Positions 6,123 through 62,532 are shown, counted from the stretch's first letter. The stretch is 64,000 nucleotides of DNA from Minisyncoccota bacterium (GCA_041664925.1 JBAYJV010000001.1:213438-277437); one strand, 5' to 3'. Notes: generated from the sequence alone by a model not told the origin. Program-made: numbers and translations.

Positions 6123-6347
6123 CTAAGTTGCGGTCGCAATTTCCCTTCTAATCTGATCTCTGATATCGGCGTCTTCACTATCTGTTAAACCAAGGGCAAG
6201 TCTCATTCCATATAATTTTTGCCATGTATCGCTTTCCTCTTTAAGAGTGTACTCTATTTTGTGCTTCTTGCATTCCTCTGGTCTTAATATAGATTTTTTT
6301 ACTTCTCTCTCATAAACTTCCCGCCCTTCTTCGATAGTTTTGTGCAT
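6123..6347 (-). CDS. hypothetical 74-aa protein (start MHKTIEEG, 6 nt after GGAGGGG)
   Basis: preceded by the full leader module; terminator hairpin 6084-6118 on the minus strand. Confidence 0.5.
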   Translation of the reverse strand: MHKTIEEGREVYEREVKKSILRPEECKKHKIEYTLKEESDTWQKLYGMRLALGLTDSEDADIRDQIRREIATAT

Positions 6348-6473
6348 TTTCCCCTCCATTAGAGATTGTTGCTGAACTACAGTGAAGTTAGAAACTCTTA
6401 GGTCCCGGCTTGCCGGGACCACATTTATTTCCAAGAACTATCGACATCCTAACACATTAATAATTTTTGTCAA
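6348..6473 (-). promoter_or_regulatory. promoter (TTGACA-16-TAGGAT) plus conserved 5' leader: AGTTCTT box, GGTCCCGGCAAGCCGGGACC hairpin, TAAGAGTTTCTAAC..., ...AATCTCTAATGGAGG
   Basis: exemplar of a leader family seen at 10 or more loci in this window. Confidence 0.6.
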
Positions 6474-13589: not shown

Positions 13590-13615
13590 TCGTTTGTTTC
13601 CAAAAGGAGGAAAGA

Positions 13616-13948
13616 ATGACACATGAATGGATGAAAGGGATCAGAGGGCTTGAAGTAGAAGCTGGTGCGCCGGCAAGGCTTTGGTATCCTGGAACAGGAG
13701 ACGGAATAAAGATCAGTGGAAAATTTGTGATTACTTTTGAAAACGGAGAAACGCTCGTGGGCATTTGGGAGATTTATTCTTCTCAAATGTATTTAAAAAC
13801 TAGTGATGGAAAACGCATAAGGAAAGATCATTCTTTGATCAGTCAAGCATTGCGCATAGAAATTGCAAATAGAGTTAATGAAGTCTGCAGAGTTTCATTT
13901 ACCACAATGATTCTTGAGAGTGCAATAAACGCAGAGCTTATCGATTAG
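13616..13948 (+). CDS. hypothetical 110-aa protein, probably co-transcribed with 13095-13589
   Basis: SD AAAAGGAGG; no intervening terminator. Confidence 0.5.
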   Translation: MTHEWMKGIRGLEVEAGAPARLWYPGTGDGIKISGKFVITFENGETLVGIWEIYSSQMYLKTSDGKRIRKDHSLISQALRIEIANRVNEVCRVSFTTMILESAINAELID

Positions 13949-14176: not shown

Positions 14177-16840
14177 TCACTTAACTACAAAGTTTATTAG
14201 TTTATCCTGAACGTAGATCACTTTGACGATTTCCTTATCTCTCGTCCAGCCAATAATTTTTGAAGAAGAAAGCGCTTTTTCTTTTGCCTCTGATTCTGAA
14301 ATACCAATCGGACACTCAATCATTTCTCTGACTTTCCCATTCACCTGAACAACCAAACTAAATACGTCTTTTTTAATTAATTTTTCGTCATACTTCGGCC
14401 AAGGCTCTTCTGAAATTGACCTGAAATTAGAATTTGTTTCGGATTTCGGATTTCGGATTTCGGATTTGAGGAGTTGATATAACTCCTCTGTGATATGAGG
14501 CGCAAATGGTGAAAGGATTATTAAGAATTTTTCAAAAACTTCTTGTGCTAAATCCTTCGCTTTTTCAATTTCATTCAAAAAGATCATCATTTGAGAAACT
14601 GCCGTATTAAACTTCATCTGCTCAATGTCTTCCCCGACTTTCTTAATCGTCTGATTTAATAATCTTTCTAAATCTTTTGATTCCTGACCTTGAATCTTTG
14701 ATCCATGTTTTTCGCTTTTCGCTTTAAGCTTTACGCTTTCTCCTAAGTCCCAAACCCTACTCAAAAATCTATTCACTCCAATAACACTTTTCCCTTCCCA
14801 CGGAATTGCTTGATCAAATGGCCCCATAAACATTTCATAAAGCCTGACTGTGTCAGCTCCATATTCTTTTACGTAATCATCGGGATTAATGACATTGCCT
14901 TTTGACTTTGACATCTTAATTCCGCCCTCGCCCAAAATCATGCCATGAGCGGTTCTTTTTTTATAAGGCTCCGGTCCGCATTCTCTTGGAACTGCTCCAA
15001 TATCATAAAGAAATTTATAAATAAATCTTGAATATAATAAATGCAGTGTTGTATGCTCCATCCCGCCATTGTACCAATCAACCGGAGTCCAATATTTCAT
15101 TTGTTTCGTATTTCGTATTTCGAATTTCGAATTTTCGCTTATAGTATAAGCGATGTAGTACCAATTAGAACCCGCCCAGTTGGGCATGACATCGGTTTCT
15201 CGCCTTGCCTCGCAACCGCATTTTGGACATTTTACCTTGACCCAGTCTTTTGCCTTTGCCAATGGCGAGTCACCATCTTTCGTTGGTATAAAATCTTTAA
15301 TTTCCGGTAATTCAATCGGCAAATCTTTTTCTGGCACCGCAACCCAGCCAGGATTCAGAATTTCTCCTTCGTTGTGTTTCGTATTTCGTATTTCGTATTT
15401 CGTATTTTCCATTAATTTTTTGCACTTCGGGCAAAATATTAATGGAATCGGTTCTCCCCAATATCTTTGTCTTGAGAAAATCCAATCGCGCAAATGGTAA
15501 TTGATTGTTTTATCTCCTAATTTATTTTCCTTTAGCCAAGCGATTATTTTTTTCTGCGCTTCTTTGGTTTCAAGTCCATTCAAAAAACCAGAATTAATAT
15601 TAATGCCATCGCCCTCGTAAGCTTCGCTTTCCGCGAAGTTAGAATTTTGAATTTTGAATTTTGAATTTGTTTCGGATTTCGGATTTCGGATTTCGGATTT
15701 TAAATCATCCGTCGGCTTTACCACAATTTCGATCGGCAAATTATATCGCTTCGCGAATGCGTAATCACGAGTATCGTGTCCCGGTACTGCCATAATTGCC
15801 CCTGTTCCATAATCCATTGAAACATAATCTGCTATAAAAACAGGAATTTCTTTTTTTGTTGCTGGATTAATTGCCTTAATTCCCTTAATCTCAACTCCCG
15901 TTTTTTTCAACCCAAGGTTGACCAGCCTCGGGCTGGCTTTTTTTATATCACTAATATACTTTTCAATTTCTTCATAATTTTCGATTAACGATTCACTATT
16001 AACGATTAACGAATGATCAGGAGCAATCACCAAAAATGTCGCCCCAAAAATCGTATCTGCTCTTGTTGTGAATACCTCCAAATAGTTTTGGTCATTTGGA
16101 TTTAAATTATTAGATATTGTTTCGGATTTCTGATTTCGGATTTCGAATTTAATGCTTGCTCCTTCCGATCTACCAATCCAATTAATTTGCTGATTCTTGA
16201 TTCGATCCAAATAGTCAACATTTTTTAAATCATCGATCAGTCGATCAGCATATTTAGTAATTTTTAGAATCCATTGTTCACGTTCTTTTTTTATAACTTC
16301 GCTTCCGCATCTTTCACAAACTCCACCAACCACCTCCTCATTAGCTAAGCCAATTTTGCAGCTTGTGCACCAATTAATATTTTCTTTCGCTTTATAAGCT
16401 AAGCCATGTTTGAATAATTGGAGGAATATCCACTGGGTCCATTTATAGTATTCCGGATCGGAAGTTGAAAGCACTCGCGACCAATCAAAAGAAAATCCCA
16501 AAGATTTTAATTGCCTTGTGAAAATAGCAATATTTTCTTTGGTAATAATTTTAGGATTAACTTTTCTTTTTATGGCATAATTTTCTGTCGGTAGCCCAAA
16601 AGAATCAAAACCAATGGGATAAAGAACCGAATATCCTTCCATTCGGCGTTTTCGGCAAATAATATCCATCGCGGTATAGCTTCGTGGATGACCAGTATGA
16701 AGCCCATCTCCAGACGGATAAGGAAATTCTACTAAACCATAAAACTTCTTTTTTTCCTTATTTTCTTTAGCGTGAAAAATTCCTGTCTTTTCCCAAATAG
16801 CTTGCCACTTCTTTTCAATTTTTTCCGGATCGTAAGGCAT
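14177..16840 (-). CDS. leuS: leucine--tRNA ligase carrying five in-frame low-complexity insertions
   Basis: HTGHPRSYT (HIGH-like) and KMSKSKGN motifs; CP1 editing domain; start taken at MPYDPEKIEKKWQ. Confidence 0.9.
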   Translation of the reverse strand: MPYDPEKIEKKWQAIWEKTGIFHAKENKEKKKFYGLVEFPYPSGDGLHTGHPRSYTAMDIICRKRRMEGYSVLYPIGFDSFGLPTENYAIKRKVNPKIITKENIAIFTRQLKSLGFSFDWSRVLSTSDPEYYKWTQWIFLQLFKHGLAYKAKENINWCTSCKIGLANEEVVGGVCERCGSEVIKKEREQWILKITKYADRLIDDLKNVDYLDRIKNQQINWIGRSEGASIKFEIRNQKSETISNNLNPNDQNYLEVFTTRADTIFGATFLVIAPDHSLIVNSESLIENYEEIEKYISDIKKASPRLVNLGLKKTGVEIKGIKAINPATKKEIPVFIADYVSMDYGTGAIMAVPGHDTRDYAFAKRYNLPIEIVVKPTDDLKSEIRNPKSETNSKFKIQNSNFAESEAYEGDGININSGFLNGLETKEAQKKIIAWLKENKLGDKTINYHLRDWIFSRQRYWGEPIPLIFCPKCKKLMENTKYEIRNTKHNEGEILNPGWVAVPEKDLPIELPEIKDFIPTKDGDSPLAKAKDWVKVKCPKCGCEARRETDVMPNWAGSNWYYIAYTISENSKFEIRNTKQMKYWTPVDWYNGGMEHTTLHLLYSRFIYKFLYDIGAVPRECGPEPYKKRTAHGMILGEGGIKMSKSKGNVINPDDYVKEYGADTVRLYEMFMGPFDQAIPWEGKSVIGVNRFLSRVWDLGESVKLKAKSEKHGSKIQGQESKDLERLLNQTIKKVGEDIEQMKFNTAVSQMMIFLNEIEKAKDLAQEVFEKFLIILSPFAPHITEELYQLLKSEIRNPKSETNSNFRSISEEPWPKYDEKLIKKDVFSLVVQVNGKVREMIECPIGISESEAKEKALSSSKIIGWTRDKEIVKVIYVQDKLINFVVK
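14436..14467. repeat. heptamer microsatellite (TTTCGGA)n inside leuS, encoding SEIRNPKSETNS
   Basis: direct reading. Confidence 0.8.
15104..15137. repeat. heptamer microsatellite (TTTCGTA/TTTCGAA)n inside leuS, encoding FEIRNTK
   Basis: direct reading. Confidence 0.8.
15376..15408. repeat. heptamer microsatellite (TTTCGTA)4 inside leuS, encoding YEIRNTKHNE
   Basis: direct reading. Confidence 0.8.
15643..15703. repeat. (GAATTTT)3 + (TTTCGGA)4 inside leuS, encoding SEIRNPKSETNSKFKIQNSNF
   Basis: direct reading. Confidence 0.8.
16119..16150. repeat. heptamer microsatellite (TTTCGGA/TTTCTGA)n inside leuS, encoding FEIRNQKSETISNN
   Basis: direct reading. Confidence 0.8.
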
Positions 16841-30921: not shown

Positions 30922-31272
30922 TTATACTAACCTTTCAACAAATTCAACTTTATTTTTATCTGGATCTAATACGCTAAAGTTTTTACCCCATTTCTGAATA
31001 GTTAACTCTTTGTAAATTTGCACATTCTTTTGTTGTAGCAACTCATACCAATTTTCGATTCCACTCTCCATAGAAATAATTACCGTTTGAGCTCCTGGCA
31101 ATTCTCTTTCTTTGTCTTTCTTCTTGATGCCTAATTTTGCGCCATTGGAAAAAATAAAAGACACATACTTATCGCCATCTTGATATTCAAGATTAAAGCC
31201 AAAAATATCCCGATAAAATTCGGTAATTTTGTTAATGTTATCTGTATAAAATACTGCGGTTTCTAGGTTCAT
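30922..31272 (-). CDS. VOC/glyoxalase-family protein
   Basis: size and beta-alpha-beta(3) pattern; weak motif support. Confidence 0.45.
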   Translation of the reverse strand: MNLETAVFYTDNINKITEFYRDIFGFNLEYQDGDKYVSFIFSNGAKLGIKKKDKERELPGAQTVIISMESGIENWYELLQQKNVQIYKELTIQKWGKNFSVLDPDKNKVEFVERLV

Positions 31273-31667
31273 ATATGAGTTAACCAATTCTTCATTGGCA
31301 TAACTATGTCGTCAATCACATTATATTCTATGATTAGGCTGGCAATTCCCTTGGTTGTGTCTTTTATTTGTGTTCCTTTTTTTGCTATAACAATTACTTT
31401 TTTATTAAGAGTAAAAGCCATGCCAGCTTCTATAGCCCTTCCCGTTGGTTTATTTGTCATATCAATTAACAATACATCTGATTTACTGATTTCGTCTTTG
31501 GCTCGTTTCATCAGCTCCTGAGGATTATTAAATATTTTTATGTAATTTTCAATATCTCGGATAAAACAAAAGTCTTCAAAACCAGCCATTCTTACAAGTT
31601 CGCAAAGATGTTCAATTTCTTTCTTATTTTCTCCATTTTGAAAACTAGCTGTTATAAAGACTTTCAT
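31269..31667 (-). CDS. nucleoside 2-deoxyribosyltransferase-like protein
   Basis: LLIDMT...GRAIEAGMA...KKVIVI pattern. Confidence 0.45.
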   Translation of the reverse strand: MKVFITASFQNGENKKEIEHLCELVRMAGFEDFCFIRDIENYIKIFNNPQELMKRAKDEISKSDVLLIDMTNKPTGRAIEAGMAFTLNKKVIVIAKKGTQIKDTTKGIASLIIEYNVIDDIVMPMKNWLTHI

Positions 31668-31847
31668 AGATATACAAAGTAAAATTTCGTGGACTGGGAG
31701 GGACTTGTCCCAGAAACTTCTATCCCGATAATTCGGGATTAGAATTTCGGGATCCCGTCATTGTAATTCCGGTAAACCGGAATAACAAGTGACTGGGAAA
31801 CCCTCTACCTCCCCGGCATGCCGGGGTGTTCTACCATCCTTAATATA
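31668..31847 (-). promoter_or_regulatory. GC-rich multi-hairpin element between tRNA-Ala and the downstream gene (CCCCGGCATGCCGGGG, TTCCGGTTTACCGGAA, CCCGAATTATCGGG, CTGGGAcaagtcccTCCCAG; contains AGAAGTTTCTGGGAC)
   Basis: hairpins belong to the same families used in the leader modules. Confidence 0.4.
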
Positions 31848-31918
31848 TGGACTCACCGGGAATCGAACCCGGATATCGACAATGCGAATGTCGCGTAATA
31901 CCGTTATACTATGAGCCC
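31848..31918 (-). tRNA. tRNA-Ala (anticodon CGC)
   Basis: cloverleaf folds by hand; G3:U70; anticodon loop UUCGCAU; T-loop GGUUCGAUUCC; CCA not encoded. Confidence 0.85.
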
Positions 31919-32033
31919 ATTGAAGGAAACTCAAAACTTAAATCTCAAAACGCAAAACCATAACTTAAAACTAAAAGCTTAATAGTTTTAATTTTTGAAT
32001 TTTGGCTTTAACTTTTGAGCTTTGAGCTCTAAG

Positions 32034-33741: not shown

Positions 33742-33925
33742 TTTCACCCTCCTTTAGAGATTCTTAGCAAAGTCATGAGCTTAGAAACTCTTAAGTCCCG
33801 TACCGTGCTTGCTCTGGTACGGGACAGTTATTATCAGCACACCTCTTCGTGTACTTGGCGAAGGACTACCTCACCTTTCCTCCCAAGAACTTCTCTTATT
33901 CTATAATATATTTATTTTTTGTCAA
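33742..33925 (-). promoter_or_regulatory. promoter TTGACA-16-TAGAAT with full leader module (AGTTCTTGG, GTCCCGTACCAGAGCAAGCACGGTACGGGAC hairpin, TAAGAGTTTCTAAGCTCA..., GCTAAGAATCTCTAAAGGAGG)
   Basis: direct reading; the -35 overlaps the 3' end of udg. Confidence 0.6.
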
Positions 33926-48905: not shown

Positions 48906-48943
48906 TATATTAGCAAAAAAGTGCCATATGTGTGTGCACATTA

Positions 48944-48972
48944 CCATAAACTATTGACTTTTGATATATAAT
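48944..48972 (+). promoter_or_regulatory. tRNA-operon promoter TTGACT-17-TACAAT
   Basis: direct reading; leader contains a long hairpin (GTTGAAACatcgaaGGGCAAGCAA / TTGCTTGCTCaccgaaGTTTCAAC) at 49000-49075. Confidence 0.55.
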
Positions 48973-49081
48973 ATGCTACAATGAGTAGTATTGAGTATCG
49001 GTCCTTTGTTGAAACATCGAAGGGCAAGCAATTGCAAAAATATTATAAAAACAACTTGCTTGCTCACCGAAGTTTCAACAT

Positions 49082-49157
49082 GCTCCGGTAGCTCAGTGGA
49101 CAGAGCGACGGCCTTCTAAGCCGTGGGTCGGGGGTTCAAATCCTCTCCGGAGTACCA
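49082..49157 (+). tRNA. tRNA-Arg (anticodon TCT), CCA encoded
   Basis: hand-folded cloverleaf; anticodon loop CUUCUAA. Confidence 0.85.
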
Positions 49158-49161
49158 GAAA

Positions 49162-49238
49162 GGGTCCGTAGCTCAGTTGGATAGAGCAGCCGGCTCATAA
49201 CCGGTAGGTCTCGGGTTCAAGTCCCGGCGGACCCACCA
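49162..49238 (+). tRNA. tRNA-Met (anticodon CAT; elongator-type or Ile2 precursor), CCA encoded
   Basis: anticodon loop CUCAUAA; 1-72 paired; no 3xGC in anticodon stem. Confidence 0.8.
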
Positions 49239-49246
49239 GAGCAGCA

Positions 49247-49321
49247 GGGCGCATAACTCAGCGGAAGAGTAGCGGACTTTTAATCCGTTAGCCGCGGGTT
49301 CGATCCCCGCTGCGCCCACCA
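49247..49321 (+). tRNA. tRNA-Lys (anticodon TTT), CCA encoded
   Basis: anticodon loop CUUUUAA; acceptor GGGCGCA/UGCGCCC. Confidence 0.85.
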
Positions 49322-49362
49322 GCCCCGCACTAAACAGAGTTAGTGCGGGGATCTTTTTTTTA
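49322..49362 (+). terminator. terminator CCCCGCACTAAacagagTTAGTGCGGGG + T8
   Basis: direct reading. Confidence 0.8.
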
Positions 49363-49369
49363 TAGACTA

Positions 49370-49397
49370 TTGACAACATTTTTGTTTATCCTATAAT
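49370..49397 (+). promoter_or_regulatory. promoter TTGACA-16-TATAAT driving the ncRNA
   Basis: consensus hexamers. Confidence 0.65.
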
Positions 49398-49404
49398 TGT
49401 TTTT

Positions 49405-49640
49405 ACTGGGGGCGGGCGTCGCAGATGGTTCGGTTGTTGGTGTAACTTGTGGTTACAGACGCATAGTTGCAGACGCAGACTCGGATCTTGTGAGAGTAGG
49501 TAAGTAGCTTTCAAGTCTCCATCAATAGACGGCGTTCTCGGGCTGCGCGCCTCCCCCTTCTTCATTCTAAAAGTTCTTTGAATCAAATTTCGTTCATAAG
49601 CGATACTCCCGAGAGAAGCATAGGCTTCTCTCTTTTTTTG
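49405..49640 (+). ncRNA. candidate structured small RNA (~150-nt core 49408-49557 closed by 5' GGGGGCGGGCGTCGCAG / 3' CTGCGCGCCTCCCCC; possibly 6S-like)
   Basis: own consensus promoter; long closing helix; no ORF; terminator 49607-49640. Confidence 0.45.
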
Positions 49641-49709
49641 TTGCTTTTCGGGGAAATAGTTGACAAATAAATATATAGTTGTAGAATGACAATATCTAAG
49701 GAGGTTTCT

Positions 49710-50036
49710 ATGGCAAACATGTCATTAGTAGGACATGAGAATGTTAGGGTTGAAGTTGTTGGCATTAACAATCGAAAAGGTGAAATCAATATCGTTATTT
49801 CTTATACATTAAAACAATTGCTGAGCAGCGAAACAGAATCACTGGTTATTCCATCAGAAAAACAAGCTCTTATAAAAACATTAATGGGTTTGACTTCAAT
49901 AGAACTTGATTCTCTCCGTGTTGCATTAATATCGTTACGAGGCGTTATGCACGATAACGATAAAAATCTTAGTTTTTCAATTCTTCGAACTATTGAATTT
50001 GTTCGTAACTGGAATCCGGAAAAAGAAAATGACTAA
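49710..50036 (+). CDS. hypothetical 109-aa protein (start MANMSLVG after AAGGAGG)
   Basis: promoter TTGACA-16-TAGAAT at 49660-49687; flanked by ~50-nt direct repeats. Confidence 0.5.
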   Translation: MANMSLVGHENVRVEVVGINNRKGEINIVISYTLKQLLSSETESLVIPSEKQALIKTLMGLTSIELDSLRVALISLRGVMHDNDKNLSFSILRTIEFVRNWNPEKEND

Positions 50037-50046
50037 TAGATCAGTT

Positions 50047-50098
50047 CTCCCGAGAGAAGCATAGGCTTCTCTCTTTTTTGTTGATTTTTGGAGAAAAT
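50047..50098 (+). terminator. terminator CTCCCGAGAGAAGCATAGGCTTCTCTCTTTTTT; direct-repeat copy of 49606-49658
   Basis: ~50 nt near-identical. Confidence 0.75.
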
Positions 50099-50118
50099 GA
50101 AGTGATAATTATTTAATT

Positions 50119-51363
50119 ATGAAATACGATTTAATTGTCATTGGCGGAGGACCAGCCGGCATGATGGTAGCTGGAAGAGCGGCAGAAAATGGCGCTCGTG
50201 TTTTGTTGATTGAAAAAAACGATATTCTTGGAAAAAAACTTCTATTAACCGGCAAAGGAAGATGCAATATCACTCATGCCGAATTTAATGTTGAAAATTT
50301 TTGCCGTTATTTTGGAAAAAGTAGCTACTTTTTGAAACCCGCCCTATATCAATTTGGCCCCAAAGAAATCATTGATTTTTTTGAAAAAAGAAATGTTGGT
50401 ATAAAAATCGAACGAGGAAAGCGCGCTTTTCCAAAAAGTGATAAATCTCAAGATGTTTTAAGGGCGCTTATTGATTATTTGAAAAACACGAATGTTGAAA
50501 TAAAAACTGGATCAACCGTAAAATCAGTAATTACAGAAAACAAAGAAATAAAAAAAATAATCTTATCAGATGGCAAGATCTTTGAAGCAAATAATTACGC
50601 AGTCTGCAGTGGCGGACAATCTTACCCATTAACAGGATCAATAGGCGACGGTTACCTGTGGCTCGAAAAAATGGAACACAGTATTGTACCTCCAAGACCC
50701 GCCTTAGTGCCAATTATTGTCAAAGAAAGATTTGTAAAAGATATTGAAGGGTTGAGCCTAAAAAATGTTTCTATTGCTATTTTTCAAAACAATAAAAAAA
50801 TAGACTCACGTTTTGGCGAAGCTTTATTCACAGATAATGGTATGAGCGGACCAATTATTTTAGATATGAGCAAGAAAATTGGCGAGCTTTTAAAGACAGG
50901 TAGCGTTGACCTTGAAATAGATTTTAAGCCTGCGCTAAGTTTTGAAATTTTAGATGAACGGCTTTTGCGAGATTTTAAAGAATTTTCTGGAAAGATGTTT
51001 AAAAATTATCTTGATGAGCTTCTGCCAAAAAAAATTATTCCTTTAATATTAAAACTTTCCGGTATTGACCCAGAGAAAAAGATTAATTCTATATCAAAAG
51101 ATGAGCGAAAAAAAATAATCCATCTGCTCAAAAATTTCAAGCTTACTATTGATAGAACTGACGGATTTGAGAATGCTATTATAACGGCTGGCGGAGTGAG
51201 TTTAAAAGAAGTTGATCCAAAAACCATGAAATCAAAAATTATAAAAAACCTCTATTTAGCAGGAGAAATATTGGACATAGATGGTCCAACCGGAGGTTTT
51301 AACTTGCAAGTTTGTTGGTCAACTGGTTTTGCGATTGGAGAAAATTTTAAAAAAATTAAATAG
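50119..51363 (+). CDS. HI0933/BaiN-family FAD-dependent oxidoreductase
   Basis: DLIVIGGGPAG dinucleotide fold; family-typical length. Confidence 0.7.
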   Translation: MKYDLIVIGGGPAGMMVAGRAAENGARVLLIEKNDILGKKLLLTGKGRCNITHAEFNVENFCRYFGKSSYFLKPALYQFGPKEIIDFFEKRNVGIKIERGKRAFPKSDKSQDVLRALIDYLKNTNVEIKTGSTVKSVITENKEIKKIILSDGKIFEANNYAVCSGGQSYPLTGSIGDGYLWLEKMEHSIVPPRPALVPIIVKERFVKDIEGLSLKNVSIAIFQNNKKIDSRFGEALFTDNGMSGPIILDMSKKIGELLKTGSVDLEIDFKPALSFEILDERLLRDFKEFSGKMFKNYLDELLPKKIIPLILKLSGIDPEKKINSISKDERKKIIHLLKNFKLTIDRTDGFENAIITAGGVSLKEVDPKTMKSKIIKNLYLAGEILDIDGPTGGFNLQVCWSTGFAIGENFKKIK

Positions 51364-52701: not shown

Positions 52702-52989
52702 CTAAAGATTAATCTCTGTCTTGCGACGCATCATCGTCCAGGAAATACTACACACAACATTGCCAATAAGTAGCAGAAAGACGAGATAGCCCGCCTTAGC
52801 ACCACAAACAAGTTTTTTTCGACAAATTATGATTGTCGCCACAGAAATAATACCCACCGAAAGAAGCGTTAGTGTGAGGGTTGTGTTTGATACGCTAAAA
52901 AATGATCCAATTAAAGTCGTTATACTGACATAAGTCAAAAGACAGCCCAAAACCACCCACCAATCGTATGACCTAATCCACTTTTTCAT
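52702..52989 (-). CDS. hypothetical 95-aa membrane protein
   Basis: CTCTAACGGAGGGAAAG-ATG. Confidence 0.5.
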   Translation of the reverse strand: MKKWIRSYDWWVVLGCLLTYVSITTLIGSFFSVSNTTLTLTLLSVGIISVATIIICRKKLVCGAKAGYLVFLLLIGNVVCSISWTMMRRKTEINL

Positions 52990-53146
52990 CTTTCCCTCCG
53001 TTAGAGATTCTTAACGAACTTGTGAGTTTAGAAACTCTTACGTCCCGGCTTGCCCTGCCTACCGGCAGGCAGGCGGGACAACCTTAGTTATTTTTAAAGA
53101 ACTTGCCAGTTTTAAAATCTTATCATTTTACTATTTTATAGTCAAG
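52990..53146 (-). promoter_or_regulatory. promoter TTGACT-17-TAAGAT with full leader module (AAGTTCTTT, GTCCCGCCTGCCTGCCGGTAGGCAGGGCAAGCCGGGAC hairpin, GTAAGAGTTTCTAAACTCAC, GTTAAGAATCTCTAACGGAGG)
   Basis: direct reading. Confidence 0.6.
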
Positions 53147-54195: not shown

Positions 54196-54359
54196 AACAC
54201 ACCTCCGTTAGAGATTCTTAGCGAACTTTTGTGAGCCTAGAAGCTCTTACGTCCTGCCGTAGCTCCGGTTTACCGGAGCGAAGGAGGACCGCCTTTATTC
54301 TATTGTGAATGAACTTTTCCCCTTATTCTTCTTTTATCAAAGTTTTAAACGAATGTCAA
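54196..54359 (-). promoter_or_regulatory. promoter (TTGACA, weak -10) with full leader module (GGTCCTCCTTCGCTCCGGTAAACCGGAGCTACGGCAGGAC hairpin, GTAAGAGCTTCTAGGCTCAC, GCTAAGAATCTCTAACGGAGG)
   Basis: direct reading; perfect palindrome GTGTTACCaGGTAACAC at 54383-54399 just upstream. Confidence 0.55.
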
Positions 54360-62293: not shown

Positions 62294-62532
62294 GTTTGAC
62301 AACAGGTATTAATTATGATAAATAGATACTAGTCCTATAAATCAGTTCTTTTAAAAATCCTTCGACTTCGCTCAGGACAAGCTCCTTCGACTTCGCTCAG
62401 GACAAGCTCCTTCGACTTCGCTCAGGACAAGCTCCTTCGACCCTTCAATTAAATTCAGGGCAGGCTTCGCTCAGGATGTAATTTTTTCTAAACCTCACAT
62501 CCGTTCGGCAAGAAAAACTAACAGGAGGAAAT
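62294..62532 (+). promoter_or_regulatory. promoter TTGACA-17-TAAATA and long leader of the same family, expanded by a tandem triplication
   Basis: AGTTCTTTTAAAAATCCTTCGACTTCGCTCAGGAC..., GTAATTTTTTCTAAACCTCAC, AAGAAAAACTAACAGGAGG. Confidence 0.55.
62359..62440 (+). repeat. 25-nt unit CCTTCGACTTCGCTCAGGACAAGCT x3 plus a partial 4th copy inside the leader
   Basis: perfect tandem copies. Confidence 0.9.

Follow-up and report, generated by a model that had tools for sequence, protein, structure and literature searches.

A putative small RNA gene with a consensus promoter and an intrinsic terminator in four related species of Paceibacteria

Among the described bacterial RNAs, those closest to the locus analyzed here are the general trans-acting small RNAs (sRNAs), the orphan structured RNAs of A+T-rich genomes, the attenuating riboswitches and leaders, and 6S RNA. 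Orphan structured RNAs have reportedly been sought as G+C-rich intergenic islands in A+T-rich genomes. To our knowledge, almost nothing is known of regulatory RNAs in candidate-phyla-radiation bacteria, and a full-text literature search yielded no paper in which 6S RNA and the candidate phyla radiation are brought together. The locus belongs to a MAG named 'Candidatus Paceibacterota bacterium' at NCBI and was analyzed within a window, meaning the whole stretch of 64,000 nucleotides, from whose first letter all positions are counted. All related loci were from Patescibacteria/Paceibacteria MAGs. A sequence-only reading of the window had described a promoter-driven structured RNA of about 150 nt downstream of a tRNA operon and had compared it to a 6S-like RNA or an unknown sRNA.

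A sigma-70-type promoter was located on the plus strand at 49370–49397, with the hexamers TTGACA (49370–49375) and TATAAT (49392–49397) separated by a 16-nt spacer. The perfect match that had been claimed for it was thus found (12 of 12 positions), and it was the sole 12/12 promoter on both strands of the 64-kb window, for which block shuffles gave an expectation of 0.18. Both hexamers were identical in three homologous loci (L208, L202, and L206), in which the spacer and the stretch from the −10 hexamer to +1 were also mostly conserved. From the promoter spacing, transcription is predicted to start at about A49405. The unit closes with a strong intrinsic terminator (49611–49639, plus strand; GAGAGAAGC-AUAG-GCUUCUCUC, then U7), as had also been noted. 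Its stem (49611–49632) has 9 bp, five of them G-C, and is followed by T7; it was conserved in all homologues, among which one A-U pair was changed to G.U. The primary transcript should therefore measure about 235 nt (from about 49405 to about 49639), judging from these two signals, and the earlier estimate of about 150 nt holds for the structured core only, not for the transcript. A promoter and an intrinsic terminator of its own, both conserved with the RNA, were taken as one mark of an sRNA gene, and both were found. It is very likely that a genuine gene for a small non-coding RNA, equipped with promoter and terminator, has been kept at this locus in four related species, a case that is built on the combination of sequence signals and not on folding energy.

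The RNA is surrounded by bacterial housekeeping genes encoding PBP1A, an ATP-grasp enzyme, an HI0933-like flavoprotein, and a PRPP-synthetase-like protein. The G+C content was 56% in the RNA core, whereas the window averaged 36%, with an sd of 6.5% across 100-nt windows. Just upstream of the RNA, a tRNA operon (48954–49350, plus strand) consists of a promoter, a leader of about 95 nt, the genes for tRNA-Arg(TCT), tRNA-Met, and tRNA-Lys(TTT) at 49082–49321, and a terminator at 49323–49350. A long hairpin can be drawn in the leader of this operon (48983–49081; GUUGAAACAUCGAAGGGCAAGCAA ... UUGCUUGCUCACCGAAGUUUCAAC) and may be a processing site. Among 52 inspected genes of the window, a Shine-Dalgarno-like motif was present in 12 and missing from 40, and several genes had a −10-like motif near the start codon. 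As these two observations together make short leaders look common, the sequence suggests that leaderless or short-leader mRNAs are frequent in the source organism.

The homologues were reached through the flavoprotein, for which a protein search returned three clusters at 85–88% identity, followed by a gap down to 67%. The RNA element was found in three further species of one genus, those with the 85–88% identical flavoproteins, and contigs of all three clusters scored 81–113 bits with the covariance model. Four species-level variants were thus available, namely the window, L208 (the same as L209), L202 (nearly the same as L203, L204, and L205), and L206 (the same as L207). In L208, L202, and L206, the perfect promoter, the RNA, its tail, the terminator, about 45 nt, and the flavoprotein ATG follow one another on the same strand. 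The tRNA operon lies upstream of the RNA in L208, as in the window, and the L206 contig begins in the apparent end of a tRNA-Lys gene. In L202, the tRNA-Arg/Met/Lys operon is absent and the link with the flavoprotein is kept. The position downstream of the tRNA operon that had been reported for the RNA is correct for the window, but the tie to the flavoprotein gene tells more, as L202 lacks the tRNAs and this gene is the neighbor in four of four species. Upstream of the −35 hexamer of the RNA in L202 (9640–9710), the sequence AAAAGTGCAATATGTGTGTACACATTACCA...CTATTGAC is homologous to the DNA before the −35 hexamer of the tRNA operon in the window (48915–48960), which suggests that the tRNAs of L202 were lost in a deletion by recombination between two promoters sharing CTATTGAC. 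In L208 (9560–9670), three tandem diverged copies of the hairpin of the terminator behind tRNA-Lys (CCCTGTAYCAGYTAGRCGGTRYAGGG and a T run) were observed before the RNA promoter.

Beyond these species, flavoprotein orthologues at 67% identity or less had no RNA element upstream, and a five-sequence covariance model, run over 1.48 Mb of related DNA, added no members; the RNA family therefore appears, from these searches, to be limited to one genus. No homologue was recovered by blastn, nhmmer, or a single-sequence covariance model from 80 related loci (1.35 Mb) that were fetched via PBP1A. The nearest of these loci, L001 and L002 (58–66% protein identity), are syntenic with the window, and their gap between PBP1A and the flavoprotein holds a reverse-strand phosphoribosyltransferase gene, no tRNAs, and no RNA element. 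BLAST against phage and plasmid collections gave only chance matches to the terminator, and two pattern scans of viral contigs gave no match. A metagenome scan with a loop and junction pattern, a stretch that proved to be window-specific, gave zero matches, and a scan with a tRNA-Lys-arm pattern, which was too generic, returned 120 mostly high-G+C soil contigs and no homologue.

The G+C-rich structured core comprises 150 nt (49408–49557, plus strand), for which the covariance model found matches in the three other species. Its MFE was −57 to −58 kcal/mol, only modestly unusual in the window (z = −2.1 to −2.3), and the z values of the homologues were −3.0 to −3.2. All four RNAs folded better than their shuffles and their reverse complements, and the given strand was more stable than the reverse complement by 9–12 kcal/mol in each of the four, in agreement with the strand set by the promoter and terminator. 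The core is closed by helix P1, in which the 5′ strand GGGGGCGGGCGUCGCAG (49408–49424; GGGGG-C-GGGCG-U-CGCAG) pairs with the 3′ strand CUGCGCGCCUCCCCC (49543–49557). A closing helix of about 14 bp with one small internal loop and one bulge had been proposed; the helix stands, and its details are to be corrected to 15 pairs interrupted on the 5′ strand by the single-base bulges C49413 and U49419. All 15 pairs were kept in all homologues, where the sole changes were G.U to A-U and C-G to U.G.

P1 can be extended by pairing of the AUG/CGU, UCG/CGG, and UUGUUGG/CCAAUGA types. The 5′ strand of this extension (AUG, UCG, and UUGUUGG; 49425–49440) has its partners CGU, CGG, and CC..AAUAG at about 49519–49535. 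Helix 2, as the extension was termed, showed 96% pairing, four compatible changes on one side only, and, in L208, two mismatches; its register is less certain than that of P1. Over the 39 proposed pairs, 96.9% of the cells were paired, compared with 40–59% when the partners were slid by one to three columns. Seven pairs carried one-sided, wobble-compatible changes and none carried a two-sided change across the four species, because only four closely related sequences could be compared; the alignment thus demonstrates compatibility with the closing helix and its extension, not proof by covariation.

The core interior (49441–49518, plus strand) aligned as conserved AACUUGU, GUGAGAGU, and GUAGCUUUCAAG together with a variable stretch containing indels and a tandem TTRCAGACGCA unit. 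Two candidate folds were obtained for it: a three-hairpin junction, which is the RNAalifold consensus, and an extended rod (ACUUG/CAAGU and RGUUAC/GUAGCU). They lay within 1–2 kcal/mol of each other in the window and L202, the junction was more stable by 5.7 kcal/mol in L208, and the constraint used did not separate the two in L206. Individual substitutions favored the junction in some cases and the rod in others. By eye, a hairpin with an AGAN loop could be placed in the variable part, with the stem UUGC/GCAG in the window versus GUAC/GUAC in the others, where the alignment is uncertain. Two further candidates were discarded: a GAUGG/CCAUC pseudoknot, as its window match was absent from the other species, and the helix GGUUCGGUUGU/GCAGACUCGGAUC of the window MFE structure with its long hairpin, which was lost by deletions in L202 and L206. 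Downstream of the core, a U/A-rich 3′ tail (49558–49610, plus strand) contains the invariant AGUUCUUUGAAUCA (49572–49585) and a 4-bp hairpin (49590–49603); apart from this hairpin, the consensus fold predicts it to be mostly single-stranded.

The conservation of these parts was compared with that of four-fold degenerate sites in the flavoprotein genes of the four species, which were 64–75% identical. The mean pairwise identity was 87% for the promoter, 91% for the 5′ strand of P1 with adjoining bases, 95% for the segment from CGGGCUG (49539) to the end of P1 including its 3′ strand, 86% for the tail, and 92% for the terminator. It was 77% for the P3-P4 region and 62% for the variable middle of the core, in which indels and differing tandem TTRCAGACGCA copies were seen. 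The promoter, P1, tail, and terminator, at 86–95%, are thus under purifying selection relative to the neutral four-fold sites. The claim that the promoter leads into a sequence without an ORF was borne out, in that the frames of the RNA region run only from stop to stop, start with TTG, and lack a ribosome-binding site, and no reading frame was kept in the three homologues. Among the homologues, indels of 1, 2, 3, and about 14 nt shift every frame. A 66-aa reverse-strand ORF was rejected as a gene, with no real homologue among 1.84 billion representative proteins, as was the mini-ORF MVRLLV (49426), which shows non-synonymous changes and has lost its stop in L208.

The conserved downstream neighbor of the RNA encodes an HI0933-like FAD flavoprotein (50119–51363, plus strand; Pfam match). 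The element lies directly before this gene in L208, L202, and L206, and in the window a cassette has come between them. The cassette spans 441 bp and leaves the RNA intact; its inserted sequence (49660–50036, plus strand) consists of a promoter TTGACA-16-TAGAAT (49660–49687, 11 of 12 positions), a strong ribosome-binding site (AAGGAGG), and a 108-aa orphan ORF (49710–50036). It is present in this genome only and is absent from L208, L202, and L206. The sole match of the orphan ORF among 5.8 billion proteins was itself, with neither an exact copy elsewhere nor a homologue. Flanking the cassette, the terminator is duplicated with about 20 nt behind it as a 52-nt direct repeat (D11), of which copy 1 (49606–49657, plus strand) is 85% identical to copy 2 (50047–50098, plus strand), which lies directly before the flavoprotein gene. 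The hairpins of the two copies are identical, the next 19 nt differ at about five positions, and the relatives carry the block once. The RNA of the window is no more diverged despite the cassette, being 84–87% identical to the others, which are 80–89% identical among themselves.

A weak promoter-like site, TTGATT-17-GATAAT (50081–50109; 9 of 12 positions), ends 9 nt before the flavoprotein ATG. A −35/−10-like pair was found 9–12 nt before this ATG in the window and also in L001, which has no RNA element; in the scans of L208 and L202, the proximal flavoprotein promoter was below the threshold. A mini-ORF of three codons (ATG-AAG-TGA, ending in TAA in two species) was observed about 20 nt before the flavoprotein ATG, at 50098–50118 in the window and also in L208, L202, and L206, and it sits inside the putative spacer of this weak promoter.

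At the gathering score, Rfam 15 matched only four tRNAs in the whole window. The Infernal/Rfam scan for 6S, SRP, tmRNA, and RNase P that had been proposed as a check was run at E ≤ 10 with lax filters over 49300–49700, and it matched neither these families nor any riboswitch or ribozyme. What was left at E ≤ 10 was noise on the two terminators and flanks and a weak reverse-strand match (E = 7.6) over the promoter and the 5′ end of the core. The L208 homologue matched no family either, including at E ≤ 10, and ARAGORN detected no tmRNA in the window. The exclusion of tmRNA, SRP RNA, and RNase P RNA was thus upheld, and the suggestion of an unknown sRNA survives, the element belonging to no Rfam 15 family. 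A PyrR-like resemblance of a terminator arm was dropped, as Rfam did not support it.

Other elements were observed in the window. A recurrent leader of about 70–100 nt lies before at least four minus-strand genes (6341–6414, 33747–33807, 52983–53054, and 54202–54263) and also before the phosphoribosyltransferase gene in L001 (about 13625–13800) and L002 (about 13600–13800). It consists of a G+C-rich hairpin followed by ACNUAAGAGUUUCUAAAYUCAC...AGUUCGNUAAGAAUCUCUAANGGAGG, and pairing out of the Shine-Dalgarno sequence by its CUCU is conceivable. Of the four genes that follow it in the window, two were checked, and both have a ribosome-binding site, which is rare in this genome; no Rfam match was obtained for the leader. 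As the genes behind it include those for a PRPP-synthetase-like protein and a phosphoribosyltransferase, it may belong to a nucleotide-salvage regulon, as a riboswitch or protein-binding leader not described before. A second intergenic island of high G+C content (31680–31846, minus strand; about 55% G+C in 100-nt windows) lies between tRNA-Ala (31847–31919) and an ORF at 31269–31667 and contains the short G+C hairpins CCCCGGCAUGCCGGGG, UUCCGGUUUACCGGAA, and AUCCCGA...UCGGGAU. The gene downstream of it has a weak, sub-threshold Pfam match to nucleoside 2-deoxyribosyltransferase, and a relation between the island and the putative nucleotide-salvage leader is possible. At 14422–16150, inside an 894-aa minus-strand ORF, short tandem TTTCGGA/TTTCGTA repeats occur in dispersed copies, and three exact 25-nt tandem repeats were seen at 62358–62441.

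With moderate confidence, and on the basis of comparative sequence data, we read the element as an independent gene for a small non-coding RNA, confined to a single Paceibacteria genus. The consensus-strength promoter would give rise to a primary transcript of about 235 nt, made at a high level and ending at its own terminator. The 150-nt domain, clamped by a closing helix of at least 15 bp, would provide stability and probably a scaffold for protein binding, and the single-stranded tail stretch AGUUCUUUGAAUCA would be the best candidate for contact with a partner, which could be a protein or, through base pairing, an mRNA. Since the RNA is predicted to end at its own terminator, to carry a stable clamped domain, and to expose AGUUCUUUGAAUCA for contact, it would act in trans in the manner of bacterial sRNAs. 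Transcription of the flavoprotein gene would start at its own weak proximal promoter and yield a leaderless or near-leaderless mRNA. The reading as an sRNA is supported by a complete transcription unit, every part of which is kept in three further species. A stable G+C helix such as P1 does not resemble the helix with which a riboswitch switches, which is short and marginal. Against the reading counts that sites complementary to the invariant tail motif numbered 16 in the window, compared with 20 expected, and thus showed no excess over chance. So do the ambiguity of the interior fold and, among the four close sequences, the lack of pairs changed on both strands. Also against it stand the constant orientation of the RNA and the terminator at about 45 nt from the flavoprotein ATG, which is an attenuator-like layout, as well as the weakness of the proximal flavoprotein promoter.

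The conserved place before the flavoprotein gene brings in the chief alternative, a leader that acts in cis on the flavoprotein operon (riboswitch-like, or a protein- or RNA-dependent attenuator), which we regard as possible but rather unlikely. The operon would then depend on the strong promoter, and the 150-nt domain would be the sensor of a signal; the terminator, placed 45 nt ahead of the ATG at a distance typical of attenuators, would gate the flavoprotein and the sugar-phosphate-isomerase-like gene behind it. The order from promoter to ATG on one strand in L208, L202, and L206 fits such a leader, as does the flavoprotein link that outlived the loss of the tRNA operon in L202. The RNA promoter is the only promoter-like site upstream of the gene that passed the scan in L208 and L202, where the weak proximal promoter fell below the threshold; however, the −35/−10-like pair near the flavoprotein ATG, found in the window and in RNA-less L001, fits the short-leader habit of the genome of the window. 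The multi-stem domain of 140–156 nt is aptamer-sized and its interior has two near-isoenergetic folds, but P1, as a 15-bp G+C clamp, should form constitutively. The terminator 5′ arm had no conserved partner in the four-species alignment or in folds stopped before the 3′ arm: an antiterminator candidate of 7–8 bp (UCUCGGG/CCCGAGA) was window-specific, and the best pairing of the tail with a terminator arm consisted of six weak pairs. About 53 mostly conserved nucleotides (49558–49610) separate P1 from the terminator, which also speaks against a leader. Likewise, the RNA of the window has been kept although an ORF that has a promoter of its own, together with another terminator, lies between it and the gene, and flavoprotein orthologues at 67% identity or less do without such a leader. 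The least probable of the readings is a processive antitermination element like the phage HK022 put RNA or the Bacillus EAR element, in which the nascent RNA would modify its own polymerase for read-through of the terminator or terminators into the flavoprotein operon. It would explain why the cassette was tolerated, and it suits a structured RNA right after a promoter, followed by one terminator (two in the window) and same-strand genes; yet similarity to put or EAR was absent in Rfam, and a constitutive antiterminator before a constitutive terminator has no obvious purpose.

A 6S-like RNA, that is, a promoter mimic binding the RNA polymerase holoenzyme, is very improbable. The very strong promoter, the roughly right size, and the pairing of the 5′ and 3′ ends agree with it, and the rod fold offers an extended, irregular shape whose short apical hairpin sits on an asymmetric internal loop. 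However, the 6S proposal of the earlier reading was not sustained, as the Rfam 6S models were unmatched at E ≤ 10 in the window and L208 and as no large central bubble between two long helices appeared in the consensus and constrained folds. The apical hairpin has only 4–6 bp in the least conserved part, a conserved single-stranded tail and terminator are not 6S features, and the element is confined to one genus, whereas 6S RNA is broadly conserved. That the locus has no RNA function, being either a small-protein gene or G+C-rich DNA, foreign or decayed, left over behind a promoter that arose by chance, is very improbable. Its narrow distribution and a middle third that evolves at an approximately neutral rate with duplications would be explained, but not the 86–95% identity of the promoter, helix strands, tail, and terminator against 64–75% at neutral sites, nor the pairing kept in all species; the absence of a conserved frame and of a protein homologue for the longest ORF disfavors a small protein. 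We consider it doubtful that the element represents a new structured-RNA class specific to candidate-phyla-radiation bacteria, either as a cis-acting sensor that controls the flavoprotein operon by other means than a classical antiterminator, or as an RNA subunit or decoy of a protein partner in these symbionts with reduced genomes.

An RNA gene with four natural variants and clear boundaries, which is probably highly expressed, offers a handle on uncultured bacteria with tiny genomes. The RNA can be used as a genus marker, traced in metatranscriptomes, and tested for partners. If it does control the flavoprotein operon, it would also offer an initial hint of what the poorly understood HI0933-like enzymes do physiologically in these organisms.

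The element can be placed against the known systems. It resembles 6S RNA (Rfam RF00013 and relatives) in its similar size, paired ends, possible rod-like fold, and, as its promoter suggests, strong and stable expression; it differs from 6S RNA in having neither a model match nor a bubble flanked by long helices, in its restriction to a genus, and in its conserved 3′ tail and terminator. With attenuating riboswitches and leaders, it shares an aptamer-like size, the location between a promoter and a same-strand gene in three species, and a terminator about 45 nt before the start codon. Unlike them, it has no conserved alternative of terminator and antiterminator, has a very stable P1 and a long conserved spacer before the terminator, and tolerates an intervening cassette. 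Like the orphan RNAs of G+C islands, it occupies an intergenic region about 20 points above the genome G+C content, with promoter and terminator signals, but it is in none of the curated motifs of Rfam 15. With the general trans-acting bacterial sRNAs, it has in common a promoter and terminator of its own, no conserved ORF, a genus-level distribution, and a conserved single-stranded stretch beside the terminator hairpin; it departs from them in its unusually large domain (150 nt) with a G+C clamp of at least 15 bp and in its host, an uncultured candidate-phyla-radiation bacterium. As read here, it would operate as ordinary bacterial sRNA genes do; what is new is the family, not the kind.
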